Notes: a model not told the origin generated them from the letters alone. Counted from the stretch's first letter, positions 6,001-63,783 are shown. The stretch: 64,000 bases of DNA from an uncultured Nitrospiraceae bacterium (GCA_963727805.1 CAVSHF010000003.1:1600001-1664000); one strand, 5' to 3'. A program made the numbers and translations.

Positions 6001-9000
6001 AATGGTCAGGTCCCCGTTGAGCAAGTTTCCAGCTGCTCTTGTTGTTACGGCCATATAGTTTGCGCTTTTGATGTCGGCTCCTGCCACCAGGTTAAAACCC
6101 CATGTCCTGACTAAAGGGTTAGAGACAATAGGAGCATCATTATTAATATTAGTATATGTATAAGCATCAATGAGATTCTGCTGAATATTGAGGTTCCCGG
6201 CTGCACGGAGGGTCAGCACGCCGGGGGCAGGGGCAGTGGCGCTGCCATACTTGATGTTCGACAAATCAATAATTCTATCTACAGCAATGTCGCCCTGAGT
6301 GTTAATAACTTCGATTTCGGGAAGAATATAGAAAGGATTAGTAGTGGGCACTGCACTCGTGTAATTAGTATAGAATGTTGACGCATTAGAAAGCCACGTG
6401 CTAAAAACAGTCCAGTTAGAGGAGATAGAAAAGTTACCGCTAGAATCTACCAAGTTCAAGTTAGCAACATTATAACTCTCAACGGCCTCAATATTGACCG
6501 CTTTTGCGCCCTTGATGTTCCCGCCATTCAGCTTTATATTCACATTACCGGTATCAGTACGTTGTGCCCTAATATTTACAGTTCCAACAGAAACTCCAGT
6601 TGGTCCGCCACCAACATTAATCGTCCCACCGTTGATATTGACAAAGCCCTGAGAAGAGCTCAGGGTAACGGTACCGCCCAGTGAGCCTTCAGCTGTAGAA
6701 GAGGCGTTGACCAAACCACCTGACTGAATATTTAGATCGTTCATAGCATAAAGTTCAACGTTGCCACCGCTAGCTGAAGATGCATCGATAGTGCCGCTTA
6801 CATTAATGTACCCAGTGAGATTGCCATTTGCATCCTTTGCGGCACCATCTGCCGTCAATTTGACATTGTTCGCAGTCAGCGTCTGATTGGCTACATCAAT
6901 GTTCCCTGTGCGTGTCCTAATGCCAACAGATTCTGTAAACTTGCCGACGCTGAGCATAGTGATGAGATTCGCCATTTCTGGATCCCCAATCACAGACGTA
7001 TCGATCGTAAAAGATCCGCCTTTTCCTCCATTAGGTGCTCCGTTTAATGACCCTGCAAGAGTAACTCCACCAATAGGCGCCGACACGATGATAGACCCGG
7101 AGTCGCCCTGGGCGCCTGCTGCAACGTCGATCACGGACCCCGAGTCCAGAGCAATGGAACCACTGTCGGTCTGCATGGTGACCTGACCTCCAGGAGCATT
7201 GTCGGTTCCTACCGTATCAGACGTATGGCCACTTGTGCCGCCAGCAAGTATCGCAGCCTTCCCGCCAAGGTGAATGTTGCCCATTGCATTGAAATCGACT
7301 GTGCCACCATTCGATTGTATGACCGTTCCGATATTTAAAGACATACCGTAGAATTTCAGCTCACCTCCGGAAGTAGGGCCCGTACCAGCTGCTGCGCCAG
7401 AGGGGGAAGCATTGATTGCTATATTACCGACGGGGTTCAGTACCGAACTGGCAGTATTCTGCCCGCAATGTCCCCCGCTATCGCAAAAGTAATTGTCGCC
7501 GGTATATACCACAAAATTGGTCGGCACGATAAGGTTCGTAGAAATCTTTTCAGTGCCCGTCCAGGTTTGCACGCTGCCCTGTGTGTACGATTGTGCACTT
7601 GCAGTCACAACGCGGGCTGCTGCGATATTGAGATCGGCGTTCCCCGTCGTCAGACTTCCTTTCCCAGTTAAGACCAAGTCTCCATTGCTATTGAGTGCGA
7701 TCGATTTAAAATGGGCAAACAACAAATCACTGCTTATTACGCCTGTAGTTACAGGATTGTACGCAACGCCACCGATTGAGATAGTATCAACAGCGTCGGC
7801 TGTGAATGTACCCGAATTGCTCGTATTGAGCATCTTCGCCGACGCTGTCCCCGAATTTCTTATATTGACAGCGGCAGCAGATAGCGTTACATTCGCAGCG
7901 CTTGCGCTTCCGGAAGGCCCTGCAGCCCAGTCAAAGTCGTCAATTACTGTCGCGTCTAGCGTAATACTACGCAATGTAGTGCCGTTTGTAGCCGAAAGAC
8001 TTGTCCCTTGAGGCCCCCAATTGTCCTGAAAATATATTCCGGTTGGCACCGCAGTGCCGGCCACAGCATTCAAAGAATTGCTTTGGAGGGTAATATCCGT
8101 AAATCCGAGCTGCATAAGCGTATTCCATAAATTACCGTCCAGGTAAAGACCGCCTAATGCAGGATTATTGCCCCCAACATATATAGCGGAACTCGCAATA
8201 GTAATGGCGCCGCTGATGGTACTCAGCTGCCCATTTATTATAAGATTGCCGGTATTGATGCCAAAGGTCTGGTCGGCTTGCAGCTTGGCGCCCGCATCAA
8301 TCTGTGTAATTCCACGCGACGATGTTATCAGGTCTATTTCTCCCGTACCATTCGTCTTGGCAATGAGCTGAGCACCGCCCTGCACTTCTATCTGTTGTTG
8401 CGCAGCTAGTTTTATGACCCCGGCCTGCAGCAACGACCCCGCAAGGATTGTTACATACTTGGTATTCTTCCCGTTATTATTAGTCGGATCGCTGGCATCA
8501 ATATACCCTAAATCTATTTCCTGGAACCCGTTTTCTGAAAGACTCTTGTCAGACACGATCATGTATTGCTTCGAGCCCGGCACAGAGGGGTCATCCGGGA
8601 TACGGCTGTCGTTGAAATGAAAATCCGCAGGCAGTGATGAAGAAAAATTCGCTGAAGGCTCAACATAGACACTGCCATTACTTGAGCTGAGTGTAATTTT
8701 CCCGCCGCTAAAGCCTGCAAGAGGAGCTGCAGATAAGGCGCCATTTATAATAACCGTCTTCGCATTAGTGCCAAATGTGATGCTTCCTCCATCGCCCGAA
8801 ACCAGAGGGTTAGCGCCCGATGTCAAAGAATTGGTAGATGTTGCCGAAGGCGGCACAAGATAATTTCCCTCCTGGGCCAGCACATCAGCAGCTGACCTCA
8901 CACTGAAAACGACAGGCTTAGTGCTGACTATCGACGTATCAGCTATGCTGGTCTGCCCGACGATAAGGGGATACCCGTTCGTTGATACAGCGCCATTTAC

Positions 9001-12000
9001 CGGCAACGTTGAACCCGACTGGACTTCCAGTATATACGCTCCGGGCAAAAAGGCATAACGAGCATTTTGAGCAGAACCAAGAGGGATCATAGAGTAGTAA
9101 CCAGCAGCGAGTCCTCCAACACCTGATGGGAAATAGACCTCCGTTCCCGGCTGCTGAAACCCATTGTCCTTAAAAACAACATAGCGGTTGGTCTTAAGTA
9201 AAGGATCGTTAGTCCCGTTGAGGCCGGCCTGGAACTGAGCAGCATAGAGCGACCCGCCACCCTGCACGTCGACCTTTGCATCAGACATTATAATGGTTTT
9301 TCCTGCATTGAAAGTGACGCCTTTGGAGATCTGTTGGTACGGCGTTGCATTGCCGGAGCAGTTGCCGCCGTCACTGCAAAGAATTGCGTTGATAAGTGTA
9401 GGATCCATTTGGTACTGTGTAGCTTCTCTGGAAATATCACTGGCAGGCTTATATGGATCGACCCAGGCCCACTGACCATTGGAATCAACGACACCGTATT
9501 GGATCGGGATGATGCCGCTTGTCGTTAACAGAGAGCCAGCTCCAAGATAGATCATCTGGTCCGTGCCGGCGTTAAGCGTGATAGTCCCCATAGGGGCAGC
9601 CAGAGTTCCTCCCTCTATATCGATCCCGCCCTTGTCGGAGGTAACAGTCAGAGCTCCGGCGGCCGAATAGATAGGTCCTCCAACCGGCGTTTTGCTGGGC
9701 ATTATCTTGATGTCATTTGCGGCCTCGATAGTAAAGATTGAGTACACGCCTGGACACCATGTGATCGTCCCTGCCGCGGTACGCTCATACACATCGCCGG
9801 GATATATACGGTCGGCGGACAACGTCAGACTGCCGCCGGTGAATAATTGCCCAATCGTAGAAACACCCGAAGGCAATCCGACATAATTTACTGAGTTCAA
9901 GCGAATGTCCCGTGCCGCATCAAGCATGACATTACGAAAACCGCTGAACTGTACGCTGCCGATGACATCAATCCATCCAGTACTGGTGAGAGAAATGTCA
10001 GCTGTTGGGGAAGCTGTTGTCATATTCAATGTTGTCGGCAGATCCGTATTGGCCAAGACTATCCACGGTGCCTGAAGCGCTACGCTGCCCGCTCCCTCGA
10101 TAACATGGGCGTCGAGCGTCAGCTTCCTTCCCACAGTTGCACTCATGGCGTTTAGTGTCAGCGTGCCACGACTGACAAGAGAGATATCATCAAAGCCGGA
10201 TGTTGTATATCGCTGCATATCGATGCCACTTACGTCCATGTCGGTAAGATTAGTGATAGAGAGTTTTCCGCCCTGCAAGCCTGCCATCTTAGGATGAGCA
10301 TTAATTGTAGCTGTCAAATTGGCCGCACCGCTCGAATCGTATGTCAGATAAATGCTGCCAGGTTGTCCGGCATTCGTATATTTATAATAGTAAGAAGCAT
10401 TCGCATTCTGGGAGGACTGTGCAATAACATTCTGGACCGGACTCGATCCTGAGATATCAATGAACGACCCGTCGCTCATTGTCAGTGTCCCAGTCGTAAT
10501 GGAAACCGTTCCACCGTTAACCGGGATATAGTTTACGGGAAACCCCTTCAGCGGGGATGACCGATCAGGCTGGTTGTACCCCCCGGCCAATATACTGGCG
10601 CTGCTTCCAATCCGAAGGCTTCCGTTCACTGTCATAGTGATGTTTCCACTCAGCGATTCCAGAGTACCGTCAATATCTAGGTTATCAGGTGAAGCAAGTG
10701 TAATTGTTGAAGGTATGCTTGACGACGCTGGAGTGGGAGTTGTGCGTATAACAACTCCTGAAGAAACCGTTAGTTTCGCAGCAGGATTTCCCAATTTCCC
10801 GTATGCTCGCAGATGGTTCTGATATTGCGATCCGGTCGCAGGATCAAAATAAGAACCGTCAGGGTCCTTAGAAGCAGTCGCGCTAAAGGAGGACTGACCG
10901 GCCATATATGCGGTACTATCGTCAAGTCCATTAAGTCGAATGAGGTCTGGACGGCCGGCGCTACCAACAGACTGTCCGGTACCGAAGGCCGAGCCGCTCT
11001 GCCCGGTAGACAACGGATTATTCAGTCTCACCATGGATGGGGCAATGGTCGTGTTAGGATCTATAATAACAAATCCACCTGCATTAAGCGTGATCCTGGT
11101 AAAGCCCGCATCATCAAACCGGTTACCGGCAAGAAAGAATGTTACTGCGTTTGGATCCTGCATGTCCTGAGGAAGCGGCAAATACGCGCCAAAATCAGAC
11201 CGCTCAGCAGGCGTTGTTGTTGTCACCTCAATATTATGAGATTGCAGCGTTATAGATCCTCCCAAATACTTTCCTGTTGTATCGGCCAAGGCGTATCCAC
11301 GCAGATCGCCGTCAAGCATTAAAGTGTATCCCTGGATGGCCAAGTTTCCTGCATTGCCGCCAGTTACCTTGTACTTGGGGCTTATAATGTAGCCACCGCT
11401 AACATCAACAACAGCCCCGCTCTCTATAAAGACTCCTGCGCCAGCATCTGTTTCGTCCTTGATAGCTATGTTCCCACCGCTGATCTGTCCGGAACTCACG
11501 ATAGCTTTGTTTCCGTTTCCGGCCGGACTGTTATCGATCTTTTGCCCGGATACATCCAGAACGCTCCTCCCGCCGAGAATGATTCGCTGATCAGGCGGAT
11601 TGCTCGCACCATTCTCCCCAATGATCAAAGAAATAGAACCGGAGGGGACTGTAATGTCCCCTTGGTGTTCAATCCTGCGGGCTTCGGCTGAAAAACTACC
11701 GCCAGGCTGCAGATTAATACTTACGTTCGGCGCTGTCATGATGGTCGATAACGCCAGAAGATTAATCGTCCCGAGTTTAGCTTCGTTCAGAGTCCCAGCG
11801 GAAATTATGGTGGTACCTGAACTCAGTTGTGCAGCGATCGACGTTTCTGAAGCATCCGGAACAATGGAAATCGAAGTTGGCGCATATACTGAAGTCAGAC
11901 TCTGACTACCGATCGTCAATGTTCCAGAATGAGGAACCTCAAGTCCGCGAATCCATGAACACATCAAATCGTCATTGTCTGAAATCGGAGATGTTGAGGG

Positions 12001-14229
12001 ATTATTCGTACTCGCAGTCCAGTCTGTCCAGTTATTCTGATGGAAACCGCGAGTTGTTCCACCGATAAGCTGGCCTTCCAGCACAACATTCTTTGCATTA
12101 AATTCAACACTGCCAGCATCCCCACCCTGCGTATATGAAGGCACATACGTTCCTAGCGCTGATGAGCCCCCGTAATATATTCCCGTCCAGGATTCAGCGA
12201 CATCAAATGATACTCCTTTGTGCGTTACGTTGTACGGTCCAAGCACAGCGGTATATTCGAGATTTGCAGGGGCTGATGCAATATCGTATAGCTTCCCGCC
12301 CGATAACAACATCGTTTTATTAACATACCCCCCCTGATAATTAATAGCTCCAGCGGCAAAATTGAGTTTTGCTCCGGGATAGACAATAATTGAACCATCG
12401 GCCACTGTTGCGTTTATATCACCTAACTGCTTTTTATAATAATAATGGTATGACAAATCTGTTGGGTCCTGGTACATCTGCTTTGTCCATGCCCCACCTA
12501 TGCTCCGCTGCAGGGCTGTCCTGTCGAGGGTCAAAATCACCTGTTCGAGATTGCCGATGGATGAACCGTTCACCAGAGTTGTAGTAATCGGCTGCCCAAG
12601 CAAGATACCACTCTTTTGCGTGTATGCATCCGCAAGTTCGACCGAGGTGAGCTTGTAACTCTCGATAGCCGCAACAGGGAGGCTCGCAACAACACCGCTC
12701 ACATCGATAACGCTGCCTGATTCCATTATGATTTGTTGCTTTGCATTAAGAGTCACCTGACCAGCCGGCGCCGTAATAGTTCCAGAAAGATCGATTTCCA
12801 AGGGGGTAGGTTCGACATCCGCAGAGGACTTCCTCGCCCCAATGTACACCGTTGGTTGAATATCAGAAGAATCGGTTACAGTGCCCCCTGATGCGTCGAC
12901 AGAAAGATCGATTGTGCTGTCACTTCCGGTAAGCACTTTCCCGGTCCCCTGGAGCTCGACTTGGCCTTTATGATTCTGGTATGCGGTTATCGCCCGGATG
13001 ACGCCCCACTGCTCAATGTTATTGCCGTACATGCCGACAAAGCCGCCAGGGGCGTATAAGCCGCTCATGCTACCGTCCGCCAGTTGCGTGCTGGACCAAT
13101 TCACCGCCTTTCCAAACAACGGATCATTATTGGGAGGTGGGGATGTGAAATTATCGTTGACTGAAACGTTAAAGATATTACTCGATGCAGAAGTGTGTTG
13201 CAACGAGTAAACATAATTATCGTTGAAAGCCAAAGTTACACTACTGCCTGCCGCCAAACCGATCTGGCCGAGGGGTGCATTTATGACACCTCCATTCTCG
13301 ACGTATGGGGCGATCAGGAACACATACCCACCGGATGCCTGTATATTCCCGTAATTCGATACCGCGGCATTATAGTAAGCACCGGGGGTAAGACTGCCAG
13401 TTATGCTGTCGGTGCCCTGAGGCTTAAGAACAGAGTAAGTGATACCCTGGTAAGAGTAAGGATTTTGCATGGCAATATCGGACCAATCTGATCCAGCTGC
13501 TCCGGTCCCGTCTTCAACATAGAATGGAAATGAAGTGCCTGATGCAAGTTTATTAAGTCCGTTCATATTGGAAAGAAAATCTATATTCCTGATATTCAGG
13601 GCCGAGGCCACAAGGCTGTAAACGTTTACCTGCGAGCCGGGTCCAAAGAGGATTCCGTTTTGGTTGATGAGGTATATCTGCCCGTCAGCGTTGAGCTTGC
13701 CCCAAATTTGACTGGGATTATTATCCCAAATTCGGTTTAAACAGGCCCAATTCGAATGCGGAGCACCCGAAATATTACCTGGTGCAGCGTTATCCCGCTG
13801 GTAAAAATTAACAGACGAGTTGCTGCCTATATTGAAAGACTGCCAATCAATGATGGCTGTAGGCTGATACTGATAAATGTTGAATTGGCTGCTTCCATTC
13901 GGATCCGGACTCTGATTAAAGGAAGGTGTCGCGCCTATTATAACTCCATCTGCTGTGCTCCCATTAAGTTTCGACTTCAATAATGGAATCTGATTCGGTG
14001 AGACAGCATTAAGATTTCTGGCACTCGCATTGTAAGAGGCATTGGACCCGTAAACACCGGGGATAGTCACCCTGCTAGAAGCAGGTCCGGCCTGGCACAA
14101 AAAAGGGAACAAAAGCACGCCTAAAAAAACCGAAGCCCCGACCACAGAGATACTAAGGCACAGAGAAAGAAAAATAAACTTAACAAATTTATTCATTAAA
14201 AGGACCTTCCTTCTATAATCTTTCATCAT
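3031..14229 (-). CDS. Giant two-partner-secretion exoprotein (filamentous haemagglutinin N-terminal domain, beta-helix repeats, C-terminal DUF3739-like), ~3730 aa
   Basis: IIDWQSFNIG...NRI...SQIWGKLNADGQIYLINQNGILFG TPS motif; Gly/Ser/Thr-rich repeats; C-terminal GGDITVWSDTGSINAGRGSKT...IIDAGEAGI. Start likely 14229 or 14196, not 14337. Confidence 0.9.
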   Translation of the reverse strand: MMKDYRRKVLLMNKFVKFIFLSLCLSISVVGASVFLGVLLFPFLCQAGPASSRVTIPGVYGSNASYNASARNLNAVSPNQIPLLKSKLNGSTADGVIIGATPSFNQSPDPNGSSQFNIYQYQPTAIIDWQSFNIGSNSSVNFYQRDNAAPGNISGAPHSNWACLNRIWDNNPSQIWGKLNADGQIYLINQNGILFGPGSQVNVYSLVASALNIRNIDFLSNMNGLNKLASGTSFPFYVEDGTGAAGSDWSDIAMQNPYSYQGITYSVLKPQGTDSITGSLTPGAYYNAAVSNYGNIQASGGYVFLIAPYVENGGVINAPLGQIGLAAGSSVTLAFNDNYVYSLQHTSASSNIFNVSVNDNFTSPPPNNDPLFGKAVNWSSTQLADGSMSGLYAPGGFVGMYGNNIEQWGVIRAITAYQNHKGQVELQGTGKVLTGSDSTIDLSVDASGGTVTDSSDIQPTVYIGARKSSADVEPTPLEIDLSGTITAPAGQVTLNAKQQIIMESGSVIDVSGVVASLPVAAIESYKLTSVELADAYTQKSGILLGQPITTTLVNGSSIGNLEQVILTLDRTALQRSIGGAWTKQMYQDPTDLSYHYYYKKQLGDINATVADGSIIVYPGAKLNFAAGAINYQGGYVNKTMLLSGGKLYDIASAPANLEYTAVLGPYNVTHKGVSFDVAESWTGIYYGGSSALGTYVPSYTQGGDAGSVEFNAKNVVLEGQLIGGTTRGFHQNNWTDWTASTNNPSTSPISDNDDLMCSWIRGLEVPHSGTLTIGSQSLTSVYAPTSISIVPDASETSIAAQLSSGTTIISAGTLNEAKLGTINLLALSTIMTAPNVSINLQPGGSFSAEARRIEHQGDITVPSGSISLIIGENGASNPPDQRIILGGRSVLDVSGQKIDNSPAGNGNKAIVSSGQISGGNIAIKDETDAGAGVFIESGAVVDVSGGYIISPKYKVTGGNAGNLAIQGYTLMLDGDLRGYALADTTGKYLGGSITLQSHNIEVTTTTPAERSDFGAYLPLPQDMQDPNAVTFFLAGNRFDDAGFTRITLNAGGFVIIDPNTTIAPSMVRLNNPLSTGQSGSAFGTGQSVGSAGRPDLIRLNGLDDSTAYMAGQSSFSATASKDPDGSYFDPATGSQYQNHLRAYGKLGNPAAKLTVSSGVVIRTTPTPASSSIPSTITLASPDNLDIDGTLESLSGNITMTVNGSLRIGSSASILAGGYNQPDRSSPLKGFPVNYIPVNGGTVSITTGTLTMSDGSFIDISGSSPVQNVIAQSSQNANASYYYKYTNAGQPGSIYLTYDSSGAANLTATINAHPKMAGLQGGKLSITNLTDMDVSGIDMQRYTTSGFDDISLVSRGTLTLNAMSATVGRKLTLDAHVIEGAGSVALQAPWIVLANTDLPTTLNMTTASPTADISLTSTGWIDVIGSVQFSGFRNVMLDAARDIRLNSVNYVGLPSGVSTIGQLFTGGSLTLSADRIYPGDVYERTAAGTITWCPGVYSIFTIEAANDIKIMPSKTPVGGPIYSAAGALTVTSDKGGIDIEGGTLAAPMGTITLNAGTDQMIYLGAGSLLTTSGIIPIQYGVVDSNGQWAWVDPYKPASDISREATQYQMDPTLINAILCSDGGNCSGNATPYQQISKGVTFNAGKTIIMSDAKVDVQGGGSLYAAQFQAGLNGTNDPLLKTNRYVVFKDNGFQQPGTEVYFPSGVGGLAAGYYSMIPLGSAQNARYAFLPGAYILEVQSGSTLPVNGAVSTNGYPLIVGQTSIADTSIVSTKPVVFSVRSAADVLAQEGNYLVPPSATSTNSLTSGANPLVSGDGGSITFGTNAKTVIINGALSAAPLAGFSGGKITLSSSNGSVYVEPSANFSSSLPADFHFNDSRIPDDPSVPGSKQYMIVSDKSLSENGFQEIDLGYIDASDPTNNNGKNTKYVTILAGSLLQAGVIKLAAQQQIEVQGGAQLIAKTNGTGEIDLITSSRGITQIDAGAKLQADQTFGINTGNLIINGQLSTISGAITIASSAIYVGGNNPALGGLYLDGNLWNTLMQLGFTDITLQSNSLNAVAGTAVPTGIYFQDNWGPQGTSLSATNGTTLRSITLDATVIDDFDWAAGPSGSASAANVTLSAAAVNIRNSGTASAKMLNTSNSGTFTADAVDTISIGGVAYNPVTTGVISSDLLFAHFKSIALNSNGDLVLTGKGSLTTGNADLNIAAARVVTASAQSYTQGSVQTWTGTEKISTNLIVPTNFVVYTGDNYFCDSGGHCGQNTASSVLNPVGNIAINASPSGAAAGTGPTSGGELKFYGMSLNIGTVIQSNGGTVDFNAMGNIHLGGKAAILAGGTSGHTSDTVGTDNAPGGQVTMQTDSGSIALDSGSVIDVAAGAQGDSGSIIVSAPIGGVTLAGSLNGAPNGGKGGSFTIDTSVIGDPEMANLITMLSVGKFTESVGIRTRTGNIDVANQTLTANNVKLTADGAAKDANGNLTGYINVSGTIDASSASGGNVELYAMNDLNIQSGGLVNASSTAEGSLGGTVTLSSSQGFVNINGGTINVGGGPTGVSVGTVNIRAQRTDTGNVNIKLNGGNIKGAKAVNIEAVESYNVANLNLVDSSGNFSISSNWTVFSTWLSNASTFYTNYTSAVPTTNPFYILPEIEVINTQGDIAVDRIIDLSNIKYGSATAPAPGVLTLRAAGNLNIQQNLIDAYTYTNINNDAPIVSNPLVRTWGFNLVAGADIKSANYMAVTTRAAGNLLNGDLTIANNTVVYTENAPIRFSSARDTVIDPINPGSGQTVGNTPGYMIDPNSIITNGQTTAFNMVYNLASFSGAIQGDVGRDLVVTGAIQTATGAININVGRDLQLQTGIAAIGSAPTLGAIRTTGELLDTSVLIGVDASDPKMDNLQNGILRNLPVIQETNSDVPRPIAAINCGNPNGCTLLASATSRGTNLSVSYLSSAAQYYWRYQSGGDINISVGGNAGTYDQVHSQWATAIGSSSNYQWDDFTIFTVPVKQQSLARGGTNIQNSILLAGYDTKFTADYVNGTAGIVTMAGGNVRIFTGGDFLAQTGTFGVGNLVVYSGGDITGRFVNANGQGQLSAKGNFGRLNQFLPAETPQIELLGSKFSVTAAGDALVGAVVNPTLASNKLDVPKVLGTTISRSAVIGCTYSEDSSISLMAGNDVTYTAHSPIYDVAYRGQTLGGSNYLATQVESVLPASVKIDAMGGNIYLLTDSLLLASSPLGNLNLSAGGTITGSTLYQTKIVMSDLPPSYWYGTFITASYQVETHINPTYASVLFNAEGNDTYIGQFTGDETAHGYYKARDQIANIGYILHQNDDQPILISAGGNIQYLDLYLPKQAEITAGGDINNFVYTGQNISNQDVSWIRANGNIAIPHALANQNSANSLAASGILQSGPGGFMVEAGGSIDLGSLQNGIQMNGNGTNNALPADNGYLILAAGYSLNKNITDVSSFFSTLRSAIDNYSQTKDVSYIDTARAAIIGPFFQGALSGSGNIDMTSSQIMTSITASDIYILAAGTLNLGKTAIPSATATISPTNGIATGSGGAINIFAVKDVNVQESRLMTFDGGDITVWSDTGSINAGRGSKTTVSASPPSNGKFSAPSIGSGIRAVTYGYALPGDIHLYAKGIIDAGEAGIAGGNIFIGAEVGVVNASNIVASGIVAGVPQTASASTSIGALSGTNSATQSSQAMSDASGAIGGRKAQTDQMIDDTLMKWLDVKVIDFILDSQDSGSQSQF

Positions 14230-14269: not shown

Positions 14270-14360
14270 AAAAAAGCCCGAATCAGGACAACAAACTGGC
14301 CTTGTCGATCCGGGCTTTCTGGTCCCATAACACACATATATGTTGGTCAGCAAAGTTCCC
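14270..14360 (-). ncRNA. Conserved cis-regulatory RNA element, copy 1 (antiterminator/terminator-like)
   Basis: GGGAACTTTGCTGACC-hairpin-ACCAGAAAGCCCGGATC...GATTCGGGCTTTTTT at the 5' end of the TPS gene leader; same conserved segments at 21489-21581 and 21432-21485. Confidence 0.7.
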
Positions 14361-14376
14361 TCTGATAACTTATTTA

Positions 14377-14421
14377 ATTATACCATTTACTCTGTTAAAT
14401 TATTGTTATAAAAATGTTACA
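14377..14421 (-). promoter_or_regulatory. Pho-box-like array and -10 for the TPS gene
   Basis: Plus-strand GTTAAA 14394, GTTATA 14405, GTTACA 14416; TATAAT (rc of 14377-14382). Confidence 0.65.
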
Positions 14422-14695
14422 ATTTTTAGCCCAACAAGTCATCATTCATGTTGTAAACGTTTTAGGTTAATCTATCTCACAAAGACTAGCATGATGCGAT
14501 AAATATTTTTTTGTTCAGTGATGCACATTCAGATCATTATTAACAGGGAGTTGATTCGCTGAAGTTCGCAAATATTTATGTCAACCCCAATAAAAATGGG
14601 AAGAAAAGTGTATCCGACGGAAACTTTCGTAAAGGCTTTTGTAACGATATACCACAAGATCTTATTGCGATGCTAGATCTGAGATTATATATCGG

Positions 14696-16360
14696 TTAAA
14701 GAAGACCCTTCACTTTAAAATATACCCTCTCGTCACCACTCCTTATCCTTCCTGAGGACTTCAGTGCCACAGCCCAGTCCAATTCATATTCCACGTGCTT
14801 CGTCACTGAGCCCCGCATTCCCGCACCAGTGCCCTGGAGTTCGACAGTCCTCGTCTGACTGGGAAGAGGTTGTAGTGTTGTTAGTCTAATGATGTCATAG
14901 AAGATATACGGGGTCATTTGAACTGTTTTTGCGATTTTTGAACCCTCAAACGGGGCCGGAAAGGATACTTCGACCGTACCATGTAGAGCATTATCCCCCA
15001 TAGCCTCGTTTTCCATGTATCCTCGGACACTTTCCATACCCCCTGAGCTATATTGTTCATTGTCGATAAGCGGTCCATCGGCAATCTGTCCGTCCAGTTT
15101 CATGAATAGACCCATGCCCAAGGGCAATTTCTGCATTCGCTGGATACCAGCAGTGACATAAAGGTAATTTGCCCTCGCTAGGTAGCGCTTGGTTTCGAAC
15201 TCCGACTCGCGTGAATTCACCTGCCTGAGGTTCAGGTTCAGCCCAGCGCTAAATTGCGACACGCCGCCCAATTCGTCAGGTAATGAGCTATTGTACGAAG
15301 CAGAAAGGGGTGAATACGTCACCGGCGTCTCAGTTATCTGGCCGGTTACCGGATTTGCAAATCCAAAGGACTGCTTGAAATGCTTGTAATCGAGACCCAA
15401 TGATATATTGTGTGTATATAGCTTGTACTGGGGAAGCGGGACCACATAACGAACCCCGAAAATCTGTCCTTTTCCGACTACCGCAAACCCTTCCCCGAAT
15501 GCAGTGTTGCTATCGGACCAGATGCCGTAAAAAACCAACTGATTGTCAACATTCCACGGTGCCGGAAGAACGTAAGAAAAACTCCATGCCTTCGTTTGAT
15601 TCAGATTCAGTGGCGCGGTCTGGTACTGAATCGAAATTGAATGCTCCTTCTGCCATAAATTATCGTAGCGGATCATAGCGTTCAACCGCAATTCAGTCGT
15701 ATCATGACTGGCTCGGTTATTGATTTCAAGATAACCGTGCAGTGGCAGGTGATCCTCAACCTTCAACTCCGCATCAATGGTCCCGAATTCCTGTCCGGGA
15801 GATATGGCGGGGTCAACCTTGAAATCCTGGTTCCTGTTAAGCCTACCTACCTCTTCATTGACCCTCGGCAGATAGAGTATCTCTCCAGGAGTGAAAGCCG
15901 GCAGGTCATGCATGATCTTTTCCTTTGTGAAATAGCGGTTGCCCGTGACTTTTACATTGCCTATCCGCGTCTCGATTACTTCTAGTTTAACAATGCCCTC
16001 CTTGAGAGTCTGAGCCGGTATATTCACCATAACAGCAGGATACCCTGCCTCGTGATAAAGTTTCTCGATGGCATCACGCGCTTTCTCCACGTCAGATGCC
16101 GTCTTTCCCATACCGATGAAAGGAGCTGCAGCACCCAACACCTTGCCCTTAGGTAAAATAGTGTTTCCGGTGATATCAAAGTCCTTGATCTCGAAATCCG
16201 TTTCCAAGTTAGCCGCCGCGCATACGCTCGCCATGGTGGCAAGAAGTGTCACGATGTAAATCCAACCACACAGGCAAGTAGACACTGAGACACTGAGAAA
16301 GAAGAAAAACTTAGTAGGCTTATTCATTGGAGAAGCCTTATCTTTAATCTTAAATCTCAT
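14696..16360 (-). CDS. ShlB/FhaC/HecB family TPS outer-membrane transporter (TpsB)
   Basis: POTRA-like FDITGNT...LYHEAGYPAVMVNIPAQ...GIVKLEV; GGMESVRGY (VRGY motif); beta-barrel C-terminus. Confidence 0.9.
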   Translation of the reverse strand: MRFKIKDKASPMNKPTKFFFFLSVSVSTCLCGWIYIVTLLATMASVCAAANLETDFEIKDFDITGNTILPKGKVLGAAAPFIGMGKTASDVEKARDAIEKLYHEAGYPAVMVNIPAQTLKEGIVKLEVIETRIGNVKVTGNRYFTKEKIMHDLPAFTPGEILYLPRVNEEVGRLNRNQDFKVDPAISPGQEFGTIDAELKVEDHLPLHGYLEINNRASHDTTELRLNAMIRYDNLWQKEHSISIQYQTAPLNLNQTKAWSFSYVLPAPWNVDNQLVFYGIWSDSNTAFGEGFAVVGKGQIFGVRYVVPLPQYKLYTHNISLGLDYKHFKQSFGFANPVTGQITETPVTYSPLSASYNSSLPDELGGVSQFSAGLNLNLRQVNSRESEFETKRYLARANYLYVTAGIQRMQKLPLGMGLFMKLDGQIADGPLIDNEQYSSGGMESVRGYMENEAMGDNALHGTVEVSFPAPFEGSKIAKTVQMTPYIFYDIIRLTTLQPLPSQTRTVELQGTGAGMRGSVTKHVEYELDWAVALKSSGRIRSGDERVYFKVKGLL

Positions 16361-16495
16361 TATATTTTCTATCTTTCCTCCGCATTGTTATTGCCGTCAT
16401 TCCCGAAGATGGTGACAGGAAATCCATTCTTATCAAGGTTAGGTGGCTACATACCTTCGCGGGTATGATGACATGTTCTAACTAGTGTCTGTAGC

Positions 16496-17485
16496 CTACT
16501 TTGCTTTGTCTTTCTCTGTGTCTGCGTTTATTTGTGATGAGTCGCCCTTTTGGTCCTCGGCCTGCTTCGCCTCTGTCTCCCGCTTACTGTCTTCAATCTT
16601 ATCGACCGTAACATCGCATGTCAGGGGTTCACGGCCGAAGGGGTTACGGTAATCCACAGTGATCAATGCATCATTCACAGACGTAATGCGGCCCACTAGT
16701 TGGCCCGTGCGTATAAGTGTACCCACTTTAGCATCAATTTTGATTTGAATTTCGTTTTCTGTCTCCAGGACTGAACCGGGGCCAAACGGTGTCTGCTCGA
16801 TAGTGCCTGGTACTGCTGAAAACCGCACAACCACTTCCTTATCAGTAACCGCCTCCACCCTTCCCGGGAATTTAGGGTCGATTATCACAGGTTGTCCAAC
16901 TTCAGCGGATTTACCTATCCGTTTCTCGTATTCTTCCAGAGGTATTTTCAATTCCCTTGGCCTCTTACGAACCCTGCTCAACTGGGCGACATAATTCTCT
17001 TCCGCCCTCCACGCTAAATCATCTGCTGTCAATTCCACGTGGCGGGTCTCGCCCACGTTCATGCCGACCACAACTGCCGCCAGGCGGCTGATTATCTCGT
17101 CCTCAAGAAGCAAGTCCTGTCCCCTTTGCTCTGGCGTGTGGAGATTGCTTGCCATGACCGATACAGGACCGCTTTCCCTCGTCGGCACAAACAGAGCTGA
17201 CTTGGGTTGATTCTCCGCGAGAGTGTCAGTGGAAGCTACAGCTTCCCCGTTCTTCAGCTTGCAAAGGTAACGGATGTCCGCAACGTCACCGGCCTGGATG
17301 ATCTTCACAGTGTCGGACTTTACAGTCTCGGGTTTGAAACTGTCTGTCTTTACGCTTGCCGTGGTGCCACAACCAGCCAGGAAAAGCATCAAACACAGAG
17401 ACATAATTGTGACTAGAGTTGAAAGTCGCGTGTTACGCGTGAAGACAATGCCCCAAAAACAACGTGCATCAAAAAAAGTAATCAT
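16496..17485 (-). CDS. Lipoprotein, FKBP/SlyD-type peptidyl-prolyl isomerase-like
   Basis: Lipobox LAGC; GDVADIRY.CKL.NGE, GMNVGETRHVEL, VDYRNPFGREPLTCDVTV (SlyD-like DxNHPLAG region). Confidence 0.7.
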   Translation of the reverse strand: MITFFDARCFWGIVFTRNTRLSTLVTIMSLCLMLFLAGCGTTASVKTDSFKPETVKSDTVKIIQAGDVADIRYLCKLKNGEAVASTDTLAENQPKSALFVPTRESGPVSVMASNLHTPEQRGQDLLLEDEIISRLAAVVVGMNVGETRHVELTADDLAWRAEENYVAQLSRVRKRPRELKIPLEEYEKRIGKSAEVGQPVIIDPKFPGRVEAVTDKEVVVRFSAVPGTIEQTPFGPGSVLETENEIQIKIDAKVGTLIRTGQLVGRITSVNDALITVDYRNPFGREPLTCDVTVDKIEDSKRETEAKQAEDQKGDSSQINADTEKDKAK

Positions 17486-17589
17486 TAGATCCCTCCTTCA
17501 TTTAAATACCAAAGTCCGTACCAAAAAGGCACAATCTAACCTCAGAGACGCTTAATATGAAGAAAAATGAAAAGACCCAGTTGGCGTAA

Positions 17590-17860
17590 CTTTTGTTTTG
17601 GTGACCTTGTTTTGCTAAGAAGTCCTCGGCAGCTTTCCGGTTTCCTCGCTCGCCACCTGCTGAAACAAAGTATCCATCTGTCAAGAATTCTCCCTACCTC
17701 TGCGCCTTCTTCACTTCTGCTTGCCTCCAAAATATTTCTCTTGACAGGATGCACTTGAAATTTCTCACAACCTGCCGAGGTGCCAATTTCGACCGAGTTG
17801 AGCATAAGACGTGCATATTCCTTGTCACACTTAAAATCTTCTATCTCAATCTCGTATCTC
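17590..17860 (-). pseudogene. IS200/IS605 TnpA (Y1 transposase) remnant
   Basis: Broken frames read RYEIEIEDFKCDKEYARL and VVRNFKCILSREIFWRQAEVKKAQR*GEFLTDGYFVSAGGERGN, resembling the TnpA FWxxGYxVxTxG region. Confidence 0.55.
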
Positions 17861-17927
17861 TTTCCCCTTCACGGCCACATAGGTCCACACCCAAATAGCT
17901 CACTTTACAGTCGTAGCAGTTATTACC

Positions 17928-18185
17928 CTAATGGGAACCAGGATCAAAATGGCCTTTCACACCTGTGCGATTGTCGATATCGATCGCCTTGTTATCGCGT
18001 AAGTTTCTGTCCCCTTTCTTATTTCTGACGTTTTTTTCTCCTGAACAACTTATTATTGCATTCAATTCCTCTGACTGTTCGACCCTTCCAAGGCTTCCCT
18101 GGCTGAAATTGATCTTGATGTAGCCGCTGAATTCTCCCTGCATAAGCTTTCGTATCGTCTCGATAAGCTCCTTCATCCTACTCAT
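17928..18185 (-). CDS. DUF2292/YezD-like small protein with basic C-terminal extension (paralogue of 21598-21732)
   Basis: GGGGAGG RBS then MSRMKELIETIRKLMQGEFSGYIKINFSQGSLGRVEQSEEL; shares F.GYIKINF..G...RVE..EE with the 44-aa ORF. Confidence 0.7.
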   Translation of the reverse strand: MSRMKELIETIRKLMQGEFSGYIKINFSQGSLGRVEQSEELNAIISCSGEKNVRNKKGDRNLRDNKAIDIDNRTGVKGHFDPGSH

Positions 18186-18406
18186 ATACTTCCTCCCCAA
18201 TGTAGCATAGCGCAAGAAACATGACGCCACGCCAGTAGCTAAGTTCGAGAGCCTAAAAGCCATCTGAAATCACAAAGGGCAATGTGCAAATCTCTGAGGA
18301 AGCAAAGAGTTCTTCCATATCCCTATACCCTGTTATTACCCTATGATCCTGGCCCTGCCACAATGAAGTAGATCAAAGGAATGCAGTCCAAACAATCAAG
18401 TTTTCT

Positions 18407-18451
18407 ATCTTAACAATTTGTTTGTTACATCAATATTACGACAACATCAAG
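18407..18451 (-). promoter_or_regulatory. Pho-box-like array and -10
   Basis: Plus-strand GTTACA 18424, ATTACG 18435, ATCAAG 18446; -10 TAAGAT (rc of 18407-18412). Confidence 0.55.
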
Positions 18452-18854
18452 TATTCAACATCTTTCATTCAATACCTAGCAAAACACAAGAAAACATTTA
18501 GAAACACAGATAAAGGAACCCACTCACCCGGATTAAAGAAGCTGTCCGATAATTGAAGGACCGGCGTTTAGCTGCTCATGGTGGCTTAATTACCCAATGC
18601 ACCAAATACTGCTTCGCGGGGTAATTAATGCCGGTTTTGTATCCGCTGCGATACAAGCAATTACCCGCATTCATGTAGTCCATATTGTTCCGATTGAAGC
18701 CGCCATATCGGGTTGGAACCACTGTGAGGCTTACGGTCAGATCATCAAAAATTCATCAGTGCCGCCAGAGCAGATCTTTCCGAGAAGGGAATACAGACCG
18801 CTGACATAAGGCAAATGATAATTATGAAATGTTGCTTCAGTGTTACTACTGTAG

Positions 18855-18884
18855 AAAAAGGCAGGGCCTCATCAGAGGCCCTGC
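18855..18884 (-). terminator. Intrinsic terminator after PstS-fold gene
   Basis: GCAGGGCCTC-4 nt-GAGGCCCTGC hairpin followed by CTTTTT on the minus strand. Confidence 0.8.
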
Positions 18885-18939
18885 ATGGAATCAACTCATG
18901 TGACAGACTACAAAATCAAAATCAGTGTTTCTTCCCCTT

Positions 18940-20442
18940 TTAATTATAGGGAAACGGTGCCACTGCGGGACAATTAACAATCGGAAGACGAAAAACAGGC
19001 ATGCCACAGCCAGTCCTCCAATACGTCATCTGGCAATTTGTTGCATATGACGGGTCATTTTGGTTACCTGGATCAGCTGCAAAGGAAAGCATGGCCTGCT
19101 GATAGGCATCCGGAGCAGCAGGTGTATAGAAATTCTCAACTGTCCAGAAGTTGTAGGTGCCATCCAAGACGTGAGTCTTGACATCATTTGTCGTAGTGGG
19201 CACGCAGTATCCATTTGCAGGGGGTGTTCCGGCTCCACAGTCCGAATTCTTAGCACAAGAGCCCCCGTTGAAGGCATGGTTCCCAGCGCACCATCTTGGA
19301 AGGCCATACCCAGCATCAGCCGATACACCGTTTAGTGAAAGCCTGATAATATTTGGATATGTGGAAGCATTACCGTTAAAATCTGTCTCCGCGGCAACCA
19401 GCTGATCGGCATCAGAATAGCCGATAGCTAACGGCTGGTTTGCTACGGTACCCCATGTCCATGTACCGCTAGTTACACCATTTACGCAGTTAAGCAAATC
19501 GGGGCTGCCATCGTTGAACCAATAGGCGTAACCCGCAGTCGGCAGTGCAGGCACCGGGGATAGCTCGGTAGAAGCTGCAATCAGAGGTGCCTTCATCTGT
19601 GTGGCAGCTATAGTGGCATGAGTGCCTGAACCGGCATGGCGCATACATACTTGCATGTTCTGACCGGCAGCGTACTTGTCGGTGACGGCTCCGCTGTTTC
19701 CGCCCATGTCGTCCCATAACTCTATCTGACCAGAGAAGATCAGATTCACTTCTGCAGTCGTGATATTACTGATCGGGTTGCCATTGCGTAACAATACATT
19801 CTTATTTGCAAAGAAGGCAAAAGGAACGACTACCGGGTGGGCATCATTAGCGCCATAGCCATTTACTGAACCGACTCCAGCAAAATTACGAGTAATCGGC
19901 ACCGGCACGCCATGAGACTTGTCGCCTAACGGCCCATACTGTGAGCCAGAAGATGTCTGGGTAAAGCAACCTTGCTCCACGTCAGACGCACCTATGGTTA
20001 CCTTCTCGCAACGCAGGGAGGTACCTGCTGTAGTCGGATCTGCCATTGCGCGAAAGCCAGGCAAGCATGCTGCACCTACCGTACCATTCGCTGCTATAGC
20101 ATGATCAATTTGGGAATTATTAGCAGAACAGTTAAGATTGCCGGCGGGATCACTAGCTATAGCGCAAAGGCCGTCATAAGAAGCCTTCGAAGCTATACCG
20201 ATATAGTCACCCGCAGCATTGTAGGCAACACAATGTTTAGAGTCATAACACTTCGTGGTGACGCCAGCAGGGCCGCATGTTGTTGCTAGAAAAGGCCCGG
20301 CTTGATCCTTCCAGAAATTAAACTGGGCGGAAGCGCCGTAAATAAACTGGGCAGGGTCACATACCGCCGCCATGGCTGAGCCGGCAAGGCCAAACAGCAT
20401 GGCTCCTGCAGCAATCGATGCAATTATCTTTCTGATTGTCAT
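18940..20442 (-). CDS. Secreted Cys-rich periplasmic-binding-protein type 2 (PstS-like) protein
   Basis: Signal peptide ending AMA; YGASAQ, IGASDV, VVPFAFFAN, NITTAEVNLIFSGQIELWDD, CMRHAGSGTHAT, AIGYSDAD match the PstS/PBP2 pattern. Confidence 0.75.
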   Translation of the reverse strand: MTIRKIIASIAAGAMLFGLAGSAMAAVCDPAQFIYGASAQFNFWKDQAGPFLATTCGPAGVTTKCYDSKHCVAYNAAGDYIGIASKASYDGLCAIASDPAGNLNCSANNSQIDHAIAANGTVGAACLPGFRAMADPTTAGTSLRCEKVTIGASDVEQGCFTQTSSGSQYGPLGDKSHGVPVPITRNFAGVGSVNGYGANDAHPVVVPFAFFANKNVLLRNGNPISNITTAEVNLIFSGQIELWDDMGGNSGAVTDKYAAGQNMQVCMRHAGSGTHATIAATQMKAPLIAASTELSPVPALPTAGYAYWFNDGSPDLLNCVNGVTSGTWTWGTVANQPLAIGYSDADQLVAAETDFNGNASTYPNIIRLSLNGVSADAGYGLPRWCAGNHAFNGGSCAKNSDCGAGTPPANGYCVPTTTNDVKTHVLDGTYNFWTVENFYTPAAPDAYQQAMLSFAADPGNQNDPSYATNCQMTYWRTGCGMPVFRLPIVNCPAVAPFPYN

Positions 20443-20481
20443 GATATTTTCTCCTTTGATTTTTTATTACCGCTTATTGTC

Positions 20482-21222
20482 CTAAACTGCCATCTTCCTG
20501 CGGATACCGAGCAGACCCAGGAGGCTCGATCCCATCAGCAGGATTGAGGGCGGAACCGGTGTAGCTGTAATAGGATCCAGCTCGGTATGGCCGTCAGCAT
20601 ACGTCCTGAGGTCAACAGCAACCACTGTTTGAGTAAGGGAGCCCCTACCCGCAGGGGCAGAGGGATAATAGTACAGCACTTGGTCAATATAAGAGGTTCC
20701 GATCTTAGCCTCGATGGTTCCCGTTGTGACAGAGCCAGTCATTGTACCTGTACTGCTCCCAGAGAGATCAGCCTGAGTCCAATAAGAATCAGCATTTGAT
20801 TGTGCCAAAGTAGCGTAGGTAAAAGCGCCAGACGTTACGTTGGTGGCAAGAGCCGCATAGGTAGGAGCTATAGCCTGTGTAGCGTTCAGCATACCAACCT
20901 TAATAGTCCCAGGATTAACAACCTGAGTTGCAGCGCCACTCAAATATAACGGATAGCCAAGAGCAGGCTGTGAAAAATAGGCAACAGAATAGCCACTGAG
21001 GCTGCCAAGTCCTAATACGCTTGAAACATTGTTAGTGAAAACCTGATTGCCCGTATCGGTCGTCCTTGAAATAGCTCCAAGGTCAACTGCATACTCATTC
21101 CCTACGCCGCCGGTCTGATAAAGTACCTCGATAAGGTCACCCGTTGCAAACGCAGCCATCGCCTGTCCGCTGAAAGCAAACATAAGCACGGCTACTGCAA
21201 GAAGCATTATGATTTTTTTCAT
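20482..21222 (-). CDS. PEP-CTERM-type (exosortase substrate) surface protein
   Basis: Signal peptide; Ser/Thr/Gly-rich body; C-terminus TPVPPSILLMGSSLLGLLGIRRK. Confidence 0.85.
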   Translation of the reverse strand: MKKIIMLLAVAVLMFAFSGQAMAAFATGDLIEVLYQTGGVGNEYAVDLGAISRTTDTGNQVFTNNVSSVLGLGSLSGYSVAYFSQPALGYPLYLSGAATQVVNPGTIKVGMLNATQAIAPTYAALATNVTSGAFTYATLAQSNADSYWTQADLSGSSTGTMTGSVTTGTIEAKIGTSYIDQVLYYYPSAPAGRGSLTQTVVAVDLRTYADGHTELDPITATPVPPSILLMGSSLLGLLGIRRKMAV

Positions 21223-21258
21223 TTTGTTCTCCTGAGTTATTGTGGATTATTTCTTACC

Positions 21259-21335
21259 CTCAGGCAACCCGGCCATCCACTCGCATGGATCCGTAGGCTT
21301 TCCGTCATCCGGTCACCCGGACTTTGGCCTTATAC
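21259..21335 (-). ncRNA. Cyclic di-GMP-I (GEMM-I) class riboswitch
   Basis: Minus strand AAGGCCAAAGTCCGG-GTGA-CCGGATGACGGAAAGCCTACGGATCCA...TGGATGGCCGGGTTGCC: GNRA-capped P2, GACG(G)AAAGC junction, GG(T/G)TTGCC end, just upstream of the PEP-CTERM gene. Confidence 0.75.
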
Positions 21336-21431
21336 TGGAGGCTGGATGCCGGCTAACCCGTCATCCTACCTTAATTTGCTCCAATCAAGCGAAACCTGTC
21401 ACCTCCCCTTTTTTTTGTAATTCCCAAGCTT

Positions 21432-21485
21432 AAAAAGCTCTTATATCCGGGCTTTCTGTTACCTTCACAGGTCAGCCAAGTACCC
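21432..21485 (-). ncRNA. Conserved cis-regulatory RNA element, copy 3 (short inner hairpin, degenerate terminator)
   Basis: GGGTACTTGGCTG-ACCT GTGA AGGT-AACAGAAAGCCCGGATATAAGAGCTTTTT. Confidence 0.6.
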
Positions 21486-21488
21486 TAT

Positions 21489-21581
21489 AAAAAAAGCCCG
21501 AATCGATAAGAAAAGACTTCTTTTCTCGATCCGGGCTTTCTGGTGCCGAAGCAAATAAAACTGTCGGTCAGCAAAGGACCC
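21489..21581 (-). ncRNA. Conserved cis-regulatory RNA element, copy 2, with strong intrinsic terminator
   Basis: GGGTCCTTTGCTGACCGA...TCGGCACCAGAAAGCCCGGATCGAGAAAAG-AAGT-CTTTTCTTATCGATTCGGGCTTTTTTT. Confidence 0.7.
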
Positions 21582-21597
21582 TAATGATGCTGCTTCG

Positions 21598-21732
21598 TTA
21601 CTTCCTTAGTATCTCTTCAAACTTCTCAACTCTCTGAATGGCCCCGCCTGCAAAATTAATTTTTATGTATCCAGTGAACTTCTTGTCCATTAGGTCCTTG
21701 ATAATATCCATGATTTTTTGTAACCTCTCCAT
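21598..21732 (-). CDS. 44-aa DUF2292/YezD-like microprotein (below ORF-track cutoff)
   Basis: Manual translation MERLQKIMDIIKDLMDKKFTGYIKINFAGGAIQRVEKFEEILRK*; helix plus beta-hairpin pattern of DUF2292; paralogue at 17928-18185. Confidence 0.75.
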   Translation of the reverse strand: MERLQKIMDIIKDLMDKKFTGYIKINFAGGAIQRVEKFEEILRK

Positions 21733-21799: not shown

Positions 21800-21854
21800 A
21801 TCATAACAGTTGAATGTTACAGCTTGATGACAGTAAAATTACAATCAGGTTAGT
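21800..21854 (-). promoter_or_regulatory. Pho-box-like array and -10 for microprotein/PEP-CTERM/PstS-fold transcript
   Basis: Plus-strand GTTACA 21816, ATGACA 21827, ATTACA 21838, GTTAGT 21849; -10 TATGAT (rc of 21800-21805). Confidence 0.75.
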
Positions 21855-29703: not shown

Positions 29704-29784
29704 GTTATATTAATTGTCCTATATTCTAGGCATCTTCTCTTGCACCCTCCTGTTGTCGAGGGACTTGCCATATTTGCCTTATCT

Positions 29785-38664: not shown

Positions 38665-38808
38665 TACTTGCCTAAGGACAGCGGTCACTTCGATTGCTGC
38701 GGATGTCAGGTAAGTAATGAAGGAAGTAATGGACAAGGGATAGAGGTACATACTATTTTTAGTTATAATACAATTAGAAAAAAGCACAGAATGCGCGGGA
38801 GGCATGTG

Positions 38809-63676: not shown

Positions 63677-63730
63677 TAATTACTTGCATCACGAAAGAGA
63701 TGAGATTCCACTAATACGGGGAGGTGACAT

Positions 63731-63783
63731 TTTAACTCAAATGTAATAGTTTTGTAACATGGCTGTAACATTTTATGTATACT
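63731..63783 (+). promoter_or_regulatory. Pho-box array (proximal pstS promoter)
   Basis: TTTAAC 63731, TGTAAT 63742, TGTAAC 63753, TGTAAC 63764. Confidence 0.85.

Follow-up and report, generated by a model that had tools for sequence, protein, structure and literature searches.

A candidate microprotein-RNA antitermination switch behind Pho-box-like promoters in an uncultured Nitrospiraceae bacterium

Introduction

BglG, SacY and LicT are symmetric dimers that read two internal loops in RNA, and HutP, another RNA-binding antiterminator, needs histidine and occludes the terminator itself. We analysed a 64,000-nt stretch of DNA from an uncultured Nitrospiraceae bacterium (GCA_963727805.1, CAVSHF010000003.1:1600001-1664000; hereafter the window), in which the gene for a 44-aa microprotein and three copies of a hairpin element lie on the minus strand ahead of genes for secreted proteins (Table 1). 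As described in PMC4347634, the ribonucleic antiterminator (RAT) is a short, protein-stabilised stem-loop of 23-30 nt that partly overlaps a terminator, and ANTAR proteins confer read-through on conserved leader RNAs that occur in several copies per genome and present two tandem stem-loops. An earlier interpretation of the window made from the DNA alone (the sequence-only reading) had proposed that DUF2292-like peptides bind the element and open long surface-protein operons.

Like the RNAs of BglG-type systems, the element is a hairpin that partly overlaps an intrinsic terminator. Its core is longer than a RAT, however, and its candidate protein is a helix plus beta-hairpin without PRD domains; in the whole genome CAT_RBD (PF03123) found no match above its cut-off. 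The input also differs: BglG-type proteins respond to phosphorylation by the phosphotransferase system, whereas control here seemingly acts at the promoter, through a Pho box. The multi-copy leader RNAs resemble those of ANTAR systems, but no ANTAR domain was found on the peptide. With the Pho regulon the locus shares direct repeats with an 11-bp period that stand 5' of the -10, as at pstSCAB-phoU and olsB/olsA-like genes; it differs in a proposed second, RNA-level gate after the promoter, of which we found no example in the papers searched.

We assign a probability of roughly 0.65 to the reading that a dimer of the peptide antiterminates as BglG does at its RAT, within a PhoB-type regulon; binding, dimerization, the sign of the effect and the signal are the parts that we infer. 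We judge the protein-RNA switch to be real and apparently undescribed, although its logic, a protein-stabilised hairpin overlapping a terminator, is already known. We found no published description of the element, or of DUF2292 as an antiterminator; an earlier one is possible, as PMC5737381 and PMC11109978 list many RNA motifs, the latter with a Geobacter genome, in supplements that lay outside the search.

Results

The pattern GCTGACC-N5-30-CAGAAAGCCCGG matches three times in the window and in none of 100 dinucleotide shuffles, at the places given by the sequence-only reading. A covariance model built from these copies and 79 outside copies was searched against the whole genome (3.9 Mb) and returned seven copies (E 4e-10 to 5e-7), which lie within one stretch of contig C3 (1.547-1.697 Mb). 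Four of these sit outside the window. Copy 2, itself in the training set, scores 60.2 bits. A near-duplicate of it, terminator included, at C3:1554432-1554965 gates a ribbon-helix-helix-like gene, possibly a further regulatory layer, and has a counterpart at one other locus. The tandem arrangement of copy 3 recurs at four loci.

Outside copies were collected by scanning 185,579 species genomes for the exact pattern, which yielded 108 loci. We excluded loci without an upstream GG, four that were judged by eye to be chance, one at a contig edge, and duplicates, and retained 79 distinct cores. Among the 80 record titles listed, kept loci belong mostly to Nitrospirota, Geobacteraceae, Syntrophales and other deltaproteobacteria, and the spread of the element within Nitrospirota and deltaproteobacterial genomes is patchy. 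The aligned consensus is a hairpin of 37-50 nt, GG-NNN-UUU-G-CUG-A-CC-(variable stem)-GG-NNN-CAG-AAA-R-CC, with two 3x1 internal loops placed head-to-head on either side of a 6-bp stem in which one G is bulged, giving a pseudo-two-fold layout. As a refinement of the inner hairpins proposed for each copy, the conserved inner pairing is CC/GG, bordered by 3x1 internal loops, and the variable stem stands above it. That stem covaries, its first two pairs being changed on both sides in 29 and 28 of 82 aligned rows. The search pattern fixed the core in this alignment, which therefore carries no information on core covariation. In a further alignment of 38 distinct copies beside peptide genes, fitted to the model, 91% of cells pair. 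The lower stem is nearly invariant and thus gains little support from covariation; its assignment rests mainly on complementarity.

No known RNA family accounts for the element among the Rfam 15 covariance models, which gave no match to the window copies up to E 10 and, at 20 other element loci, only sub-threshold overlaps at a single locus (E 2-3). Two candidates were rejected individually. The LOOT RNA motif (RF03000), a leader motif of long operons, matched no copy (best genome score 20.8 bits, elsewhere, cut-off 46.4), and the portion of its consensus examined differs from the element. A K-turn was considered and discarded because the strand 3' of the 3-nt bulge is CAG, which pairs with CUG. 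On viral contigs a looser pattern gave at least 120 stretches, and none of the 80 scored with our covariance model reached E 0.01.

Table 1 Features of the switch region and its reference site, in window coordinates
Feature	Position	Strand	Basis
TPS-domain/DUF3739 exoprotein gene of ~11 kb (TPS, two-partner secretion), gated by copy 1	3031..14196	-	start inferred
Intrinsic terminator overlapping copy 1	14270..14318	-	minimum-energy fold -34.7 kcal/mol, z -3.13
Element copy 1, antiterminator hairpin core	14312..14360	-	pattern, covariance model, folding
Copy 1 promoter: three 11-bp-spaced TNTAACA repeats and TG-extended TATAAT-like hexamer	14377..14421	-	read from sequence; 8.7 bits
ShlB/FhaC-type two-partner-secretion transporter	14696..16360	-	Pfam ShlB and POTRA_2
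329-aa lipoprotein-like gene, weak FKBP-type similarity	16496..17485	-	Pfam E 0.029 only
85-aa paralogue, long-tailed subtype, no element behind	17928..18185	-	46% identical to the 44-aa peptide over 41 residues
Pho-box-like repeats ahead of paralogue	18423..18454	-	matrix rank 6, 23.0 bits
500-aa secreted PBP-superfamily (PstS-like) protein	18940..20442	-	profile match
246-aa secreted protein, PEP-CTERM/VPLPA-type tail, first target of copies 2 and 3	20482..21222	-	Pfam PEP-CTERM weak, E 0.042
c-di-GMP-I riboswitch aptamer (c-di-GMP, cyclic di-GMP), leader between copy 3 and next gene	21260..21338	-	RF01051, 52.1 bits, gathering score 35
Element copy 3, tandem, short stem, then weak hairpin without U tract	21449..21485	-	pattern, folding, covariance model
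Intrinsic terminator overlapping last 7 nt of copy 2	21489..21539	-	minimum-energy fold -36.1 kcal/mol, z -3.78; antiterminator form -26.6
Element copy 2, antiterminator hairpin core	21533..21581	-	pattern, covariance model, folding
44-aa microprotein, short subtype (ends KFEEILxK), candidate RNA-binding antiterminator	21598..21732	-	clustering, codon conservation, AlphaFold
Pho-box-like 11-bp-period direct repeats at -35 position, peptide gene promoter	21815..21846	-	matrix rank 2
Pho-box-like repeats ahead of pstS (start 63811), pstSCAB-phoU operon; reference site, outside switch	63728..63770	+	matrix rank 3

Pairing of CUUUGCUG with CAGAAAG around a bulged G, in competition with the terminator, had been proposed for copies 1 and 2. 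We recovered it in both, at a cost of 8.8 and 9.5 kcal/mol relative to the terminator, into which these two copies fold by default; the proposal of a terminator did not extend to copy 3. The last ~7 nt of the element double as the 5' arm of the terminator. This overlap is general, since at least 4 nt of AAARCCC are shared with the terminator in 71 of the 76 elements with a detected terminator, and across these 76 the terminator form is more stable by a median of 10.7 kcal/mol. The default should therefore be off, and something must hold the antiterminator hairpin. A generic promoter and terminator scan performed at chance level and left the long terminators unlisted.

In a rival reading the peptide is still the partner but works through RNA polymerase or Nus factors, with the hairpin as a nut-like loading site for processive antitermination. 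It would suit copy 3 and the tandem second copies that resemble it in other genomes, which lack a U-tract terminator, the great length of some targets (the 11-kb TPS gene, polysaccharide genes) and the tiny size of a peptide without a solved RNA-binding relative. A loading site would not need to overlap its own terminator, though, as nearly all of the elements do, and many targets are single short genes, which leaves the processive version unlikely.

The proposed 44-aa open reading frame (ORF) does head tandem copies 2 and 3. Its family comprises 248 representatives at 50% clustering, and codon-position identity across 31 distinct cores is 0.71/0.80/0.41, a pattern of coding selection that marks the peptide as a real protein family. 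AlphaFold predicts a helix (residues 2-16) followed by two strands (21-28 and 31-39) forming a beta-hairpin, at a predicted local distance difference test score of 90. The peptide matched no Pfam or NCBIfam family and, by sequence, no solved relative in the PDB. Foldseek returned nothing at E 0.001 for the peptide or for a two-domain DUF2292 protein; a structure search gave best VIA Z scores of 3.6 and 5.1, respectively, from which neither a new fold nor a lack of kin follows. Two unnamed ESM Atlas clusters at 0.76 are a lead only.

Members fall into a short subtype ending KFEEILKK and another with a variable tail like that of the 85-aa paralogue in the window, sometimes fused to a lipoprotein. 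The paralogue was found where the sequence-only reading had placed it, but no element follows it, and it appears to form a distinct subtype that lacks its own element. Its domain is joined to the front end of a lipoprotein in two family members (P0077 and P0166), whose likeness to the downstream lipoprotein in the window was judged by eye. Tails of four long-type paralogues carry repeated ERR/DRR motifs reminiscent of c-di-GMP-binding RxxxR sites.

We then compared the distributions of peptide and element. RNA searches of genome samples scored 39 candidates per genome, so absences of the element are soft. Among 41 relatives, the element was present in the source genome and G003 and weakly in G010. 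Strong peptide matches occurred in the first two, and three marginal ones stood without an element. In G010 (C29:1032-1207) a decayed peptide gene with internal stops lies directly 5' of a degenerate element, and the two appear to be eroding together. A class-level sample of 150 genomes contained the element in the source genome and G130 and the peptide in these two and G010, with neither in the remaining 147. Of 150 genomes from the phylum of a Geobacter genome, two had strong matches to both parts, two had marginal matches to the peptide only, and 146 had neither.

In the converse direction, we reached 48 element genomes, mostly as draft assemblies, via 50 of 72 element loci, and 39 of these genomes carry a peptide gene. 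Position was examined at the 30 best peptide loci (29 short-type, one long-tailed), in genomes picked for having an element: 26 of the 29 short-type genes are followed by an element 0-301 nt 3' of the stop on the same strand, often starting within 0-30 nt, and the long-tailed gene by none. That the element and the peptide are tightly tied in other genomes is thus supported, and the enrichment beside peptide genes that the sequence-only reading anticipated was found. None of the computational checks by which that reading could have fallen overturned it. Within the source genome, five of the seven copies have no peptide gene directly upstream, which we count in favour of action in trans.

Close spacing would also be expected if the peptide bound with the opposite sign, favouring termination as negative feedback, or if a ribosome on a leader peptide attenuated transcription in cis. 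The spacing nevertheless runs as far as 301 nt, the five solitary copies lack a family ORF upstream, the terminator wins by ~10 kcal/mol unaided, and conservation of the protein is that of a folded unit; we give such schemes little credence.

By Pfam, the peptide falls outside DUF2292. None of 36 peptide members matched Pfam DUF2292 (PF10055, gathering cut-off 22 bits) at E up to 10, and the source genome contains no match at all, neither window peptide included. The best score, 14.7 bits on a Geobacter homologue, was the sole match in that genome and lies below the cut-off. Alignment of the profiles with hhalign gave E 0.033 and 0.042 over 35 columns at 29% identity, with a probability of only 1.3-1.5%. 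What the peptide has in common with DUF2292/YezD/OscA is its size, a G-x-I-x-I...G...E-K pattern and a predicted helix plus two-strand hairpin, the same topology as the DUF2292 repeat when the models are compared without superposition. The context differs, with sulfur for OscA and phosphate and surface proteins here: PMC2996968 describes OscA as a small protein, its function unknown, that is encoded next to sulfate-transport genes and linked to sulfur starvation.

The RNA gives a stronger link. Among 30 Bacillota DUF2292 loci, taken from a set of 250 genomes centred on a Ruminococcus record, 13 carry a hairpin CUGAC-C-AG...CU-GG-AGGC within 200 nt of the stop, the end of which starts a terminator arm; shuffles gave a mean of 0.97 and a maximum of 6, for a pattern chosen after viewing the sequences. 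This hairpin is shorter than the element, which has a second stem and loop, and our covariance model does not find it; no Rfam family was found at the hairpin in the 20 of 31 DUF2292 loci scanned. With no match to our model, it reads as a sister RNA of the element, distinct from it, and a distant kinship between the peptide and DUF2292 is probable. Two-domain fusions make up seven of the 30 DUF2292 proteins, which would fit a dimer. Canonical DUF2292 genes stand behind S-adenosylmethionine (SAM-I) riboswitches at three loci, and at two of these the order is riboswitch, DUF2292, then small hairpin-terminator, that is, two gates in series. A conserved DGxGI tail, with no hairpin directly 3', was seen in two-domain DUF2292 proteins and in one single-domain protein.

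Could the hairpin instead be a riboswitch for a small metabolite or ion, the peptide gene being a co-inherited passenger or acting elsewhere? Its internal loops are highly conserved, its terminator resembles an expression platform, and it is located among true riboswitches. However, because it precedes the terminator, the peptide gene is not a regulated target; co-occurrence holds over distant lineages, the targets are metabolically unrelated, and a smaller hairpin accompanies true DUF2292 genes in the same way. We regard this explanation as improbable.

Promoters provided a further feature of the locus. De novo motif discovery in 31 non-redundant regions upstream of peptide genes from other genomes returned a motif of three repeats with an 11-bp period and the ending GTCAT-N6-GTAACA (log-likelihood 308; 94-96 for three sets of base-shuffled sequences, for which fewer seeds were run), with a site above 10 bits in 22 of these training regions. 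Across 7.79 million genomic positions the matrix ranked the peptide promoter second, the pstSCAB-phoU promoter third and the paralogue sixth. Five of the six element promoters in the genome, and that of the paralogue, score 8.7-24.9 bits; three of these five reach 20.5, 17.7 and 10.5 bits. Copy 1 has the lowest of these scores, at a level (8 bits) attained by 0.7% of random 300-nt windows. The peptide promoter reads CTGTCAT-CAAG-CTGTAAC at 21833-21816 and has an extended -10-like hexamer (21808-21800). Further sites stand ahead of PrsT-like genes and of olsB/olsA-like lipid genes. The presence of Pho-box-like repeats, which pstS shares, in front of the peptide gene and of most copies is new relative to the sequence-only reading.

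In 82 element upstream regions, an early Pho-box expression was weak (4 matches, shuffle maximum 4) and TGTAA[CT] was enriched (27, versus a shuffle mean of 7.0 and maximum of 13). The window consensus agrees with the PhoB box as given in PMC3333781. The best PhoB-like gene, at C3:1528791 and 18 kb from the first copy, scores 277.9 bits against a cut-off of 296.2. Binding by PhoB and the start of the transcript are presumed from the promoter motifs; another OmpR-family regulator could read the same boxes. At four Geobacter-type loci, the peptide and element instead lie behind a molybdenum/tungsten cofactor (Moco) riboswitch, two of them recognized by eye, and a CitMHS-like transporter follows the element at two. 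This placement after Moco riboswitches and before transporters marks the module as portable.

Several observations accompany the promoter sites. Pho-box-like sites cluster on C3 at ~1.46-1.70 Mb, with window positions 29706, 29782, 45864, 47163, 61412 and 62762, and precede a polysaccharide cluster, a second ShlB-like gene, olsB/olsA-like genes, a sugar operon from 29864 and a glycosyltransferase at 47478; an alkaline phosphatase gene lies at 54307-55908. The clustered region looks like a phosphate-starvation surface-remodelling region. A GGAGGTGA-type sequence lies between the two Pho-box groups of pstS (63719-63730, plus strand). Another is at 21396-21405 (minus strand), without a clear start codon behind it, and such sequences follow many tandem or second-type copies, at ten loci. 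The promoter matrix also scored tandem 11-bp AATCTTAATTA repeats at C3:2009668-2009701 (minus strand), possibly the array of another regulator.

Downstream of the elements, secreted and surface proteins prevail. The six units of the source genome lead to VPLPA/PEP-CTERM-type proteins in four cases (one after the ribbon-helix-helix-like gene, by eye), to a secreted repeat protein and to the TPS exoprotein. The longest TPS frame begins inside copy 1; translation more probably starts at the in-frame ATG at 14196, which follows GGAAGG. In other genomes we found 59 first downstream ORFs and profile-scanned 44, of which 13 matched VPLPA/PEP-CTERM models (including the first genes at L006, L027, L071 and L073), three were polysaccharide glycosyltransferases, and others were a TPS protein, exosortase H, a pilin-like protein and cytochrome c7. 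Four pro-kumamolisin proteases and one metallophosphoesterase were further first ORFs. The expectation of surface proteins was borne out; that of long operons did not hold as a rule, as many targets are single sorting-signal proteins of 200-280 aa. The c-di-GMP-I riboswitch in the leader of copies 2 and 3 had escaped the sequence-only reading. A terminator-like hairpin at 18884-18861 stands behind the 500-aa PstS-like gene.

Discussion

Under the BglG-like reading, phosphate starvation would lead a PhoB-type regulator to fire the peptide and element promoters. The peptide gene lies 5' of its own terminator, so the peptide would be made first, translated from the part of the transcript ahead of that terminator. 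A peptide dimer, matching the pseudo-two-fold RNA, would then clamp the nascent hairpin and block the terminator. Read-through would follow into genes for surface proteins, adhesins, polysaccharides and secreted hydrolases, both at the peptide's own locus and in trans at solitary copies. The outcome would be a delayed AND gate (a coherent feed-forward loop), to which the c-di-GMP riboswitch could add a third control at the main PEP-CTERM gene.

Several results weigh against this mechanism. On the RNA side, the core of the 38-copy alignment shows one both-side change, a few U-A to U-G changes and eight copies unpaired at one U-A pair, and no U-tract terminator follows copy 3. The peptide has neither a markedly basic character nor a solved RNA-binding relative. 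Its association with the element has gaps: five genomes have weak peptide matches without an element (G008, G018, G020, G237 and G346), nine of the 48 element genomes have no peptide match, and three of the 29 short-type genes have no covariance-model match downstream. Related genomes are moreover not independent, and one mobile island bearing both parts would also give co-occurrence. As to phosphate, nine of the 31 training regions and one of the six element promoters (-1.2 bits) lack a matrix site, and Geobacter copies sit behind Moco riboswitches instead. It is also improbable that another protein opens the switch, either an unspecified RNA-binding protein or a NusG paralogue of the UpxY/RfaH type that serves surface-polymer operons, because the UpxY-like gene in the genome (C3:533929-534399) lies ~1 Mb from the elements, such genes occur in 17 of the 41 relatives, only two of them with the element, G010 has none, and no BglG-type CAT domain scores above its cut-off.

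A broader generalization is tentative. DUF2292-like microproteins could form one superfamily of minimal (~40-residue) dimeric RNA-binding antiterminators that co-diversify with cognate hairpins. The branch here may read a doubled, pseudo-symmetric hairpin and stand behind varied starvation sensors: PhoB in this genome, Moco riboswitches in Geobacter and SAM riboswitches in Bacillota. As a key of the cell's own making, it may commit that cell to a programme of surface proteins, floc or biofilm, and the long-tailed paralogue may tune the switch as a heterodimer partner or membrane-tethered sink.

If the mechanism is correct, it would give a testable function to a family of unknown function (DUF2292/YezD/OscA and the branch here) and add a very small RNA-binding antiterminator, with an RNA absent from Rfam. 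It would also place a second, RNA-level gate inside the phosphate-starvation regulon, controlling PEP-CTERM-type surface proteins and adhesins. A 44-residue protein and a 50-nt RNA could be rebuilt in a laboratory strain and might further serve as a compact, orthogonal switch.

Additional observations

Elsewhere in the window (37846-38805, minus strand), similarity to cation-efflux proteins is split over two adjacent ORFs, perhaps through a frameshift, with HMA_2-domain genes and a P-type ATPase nearby.

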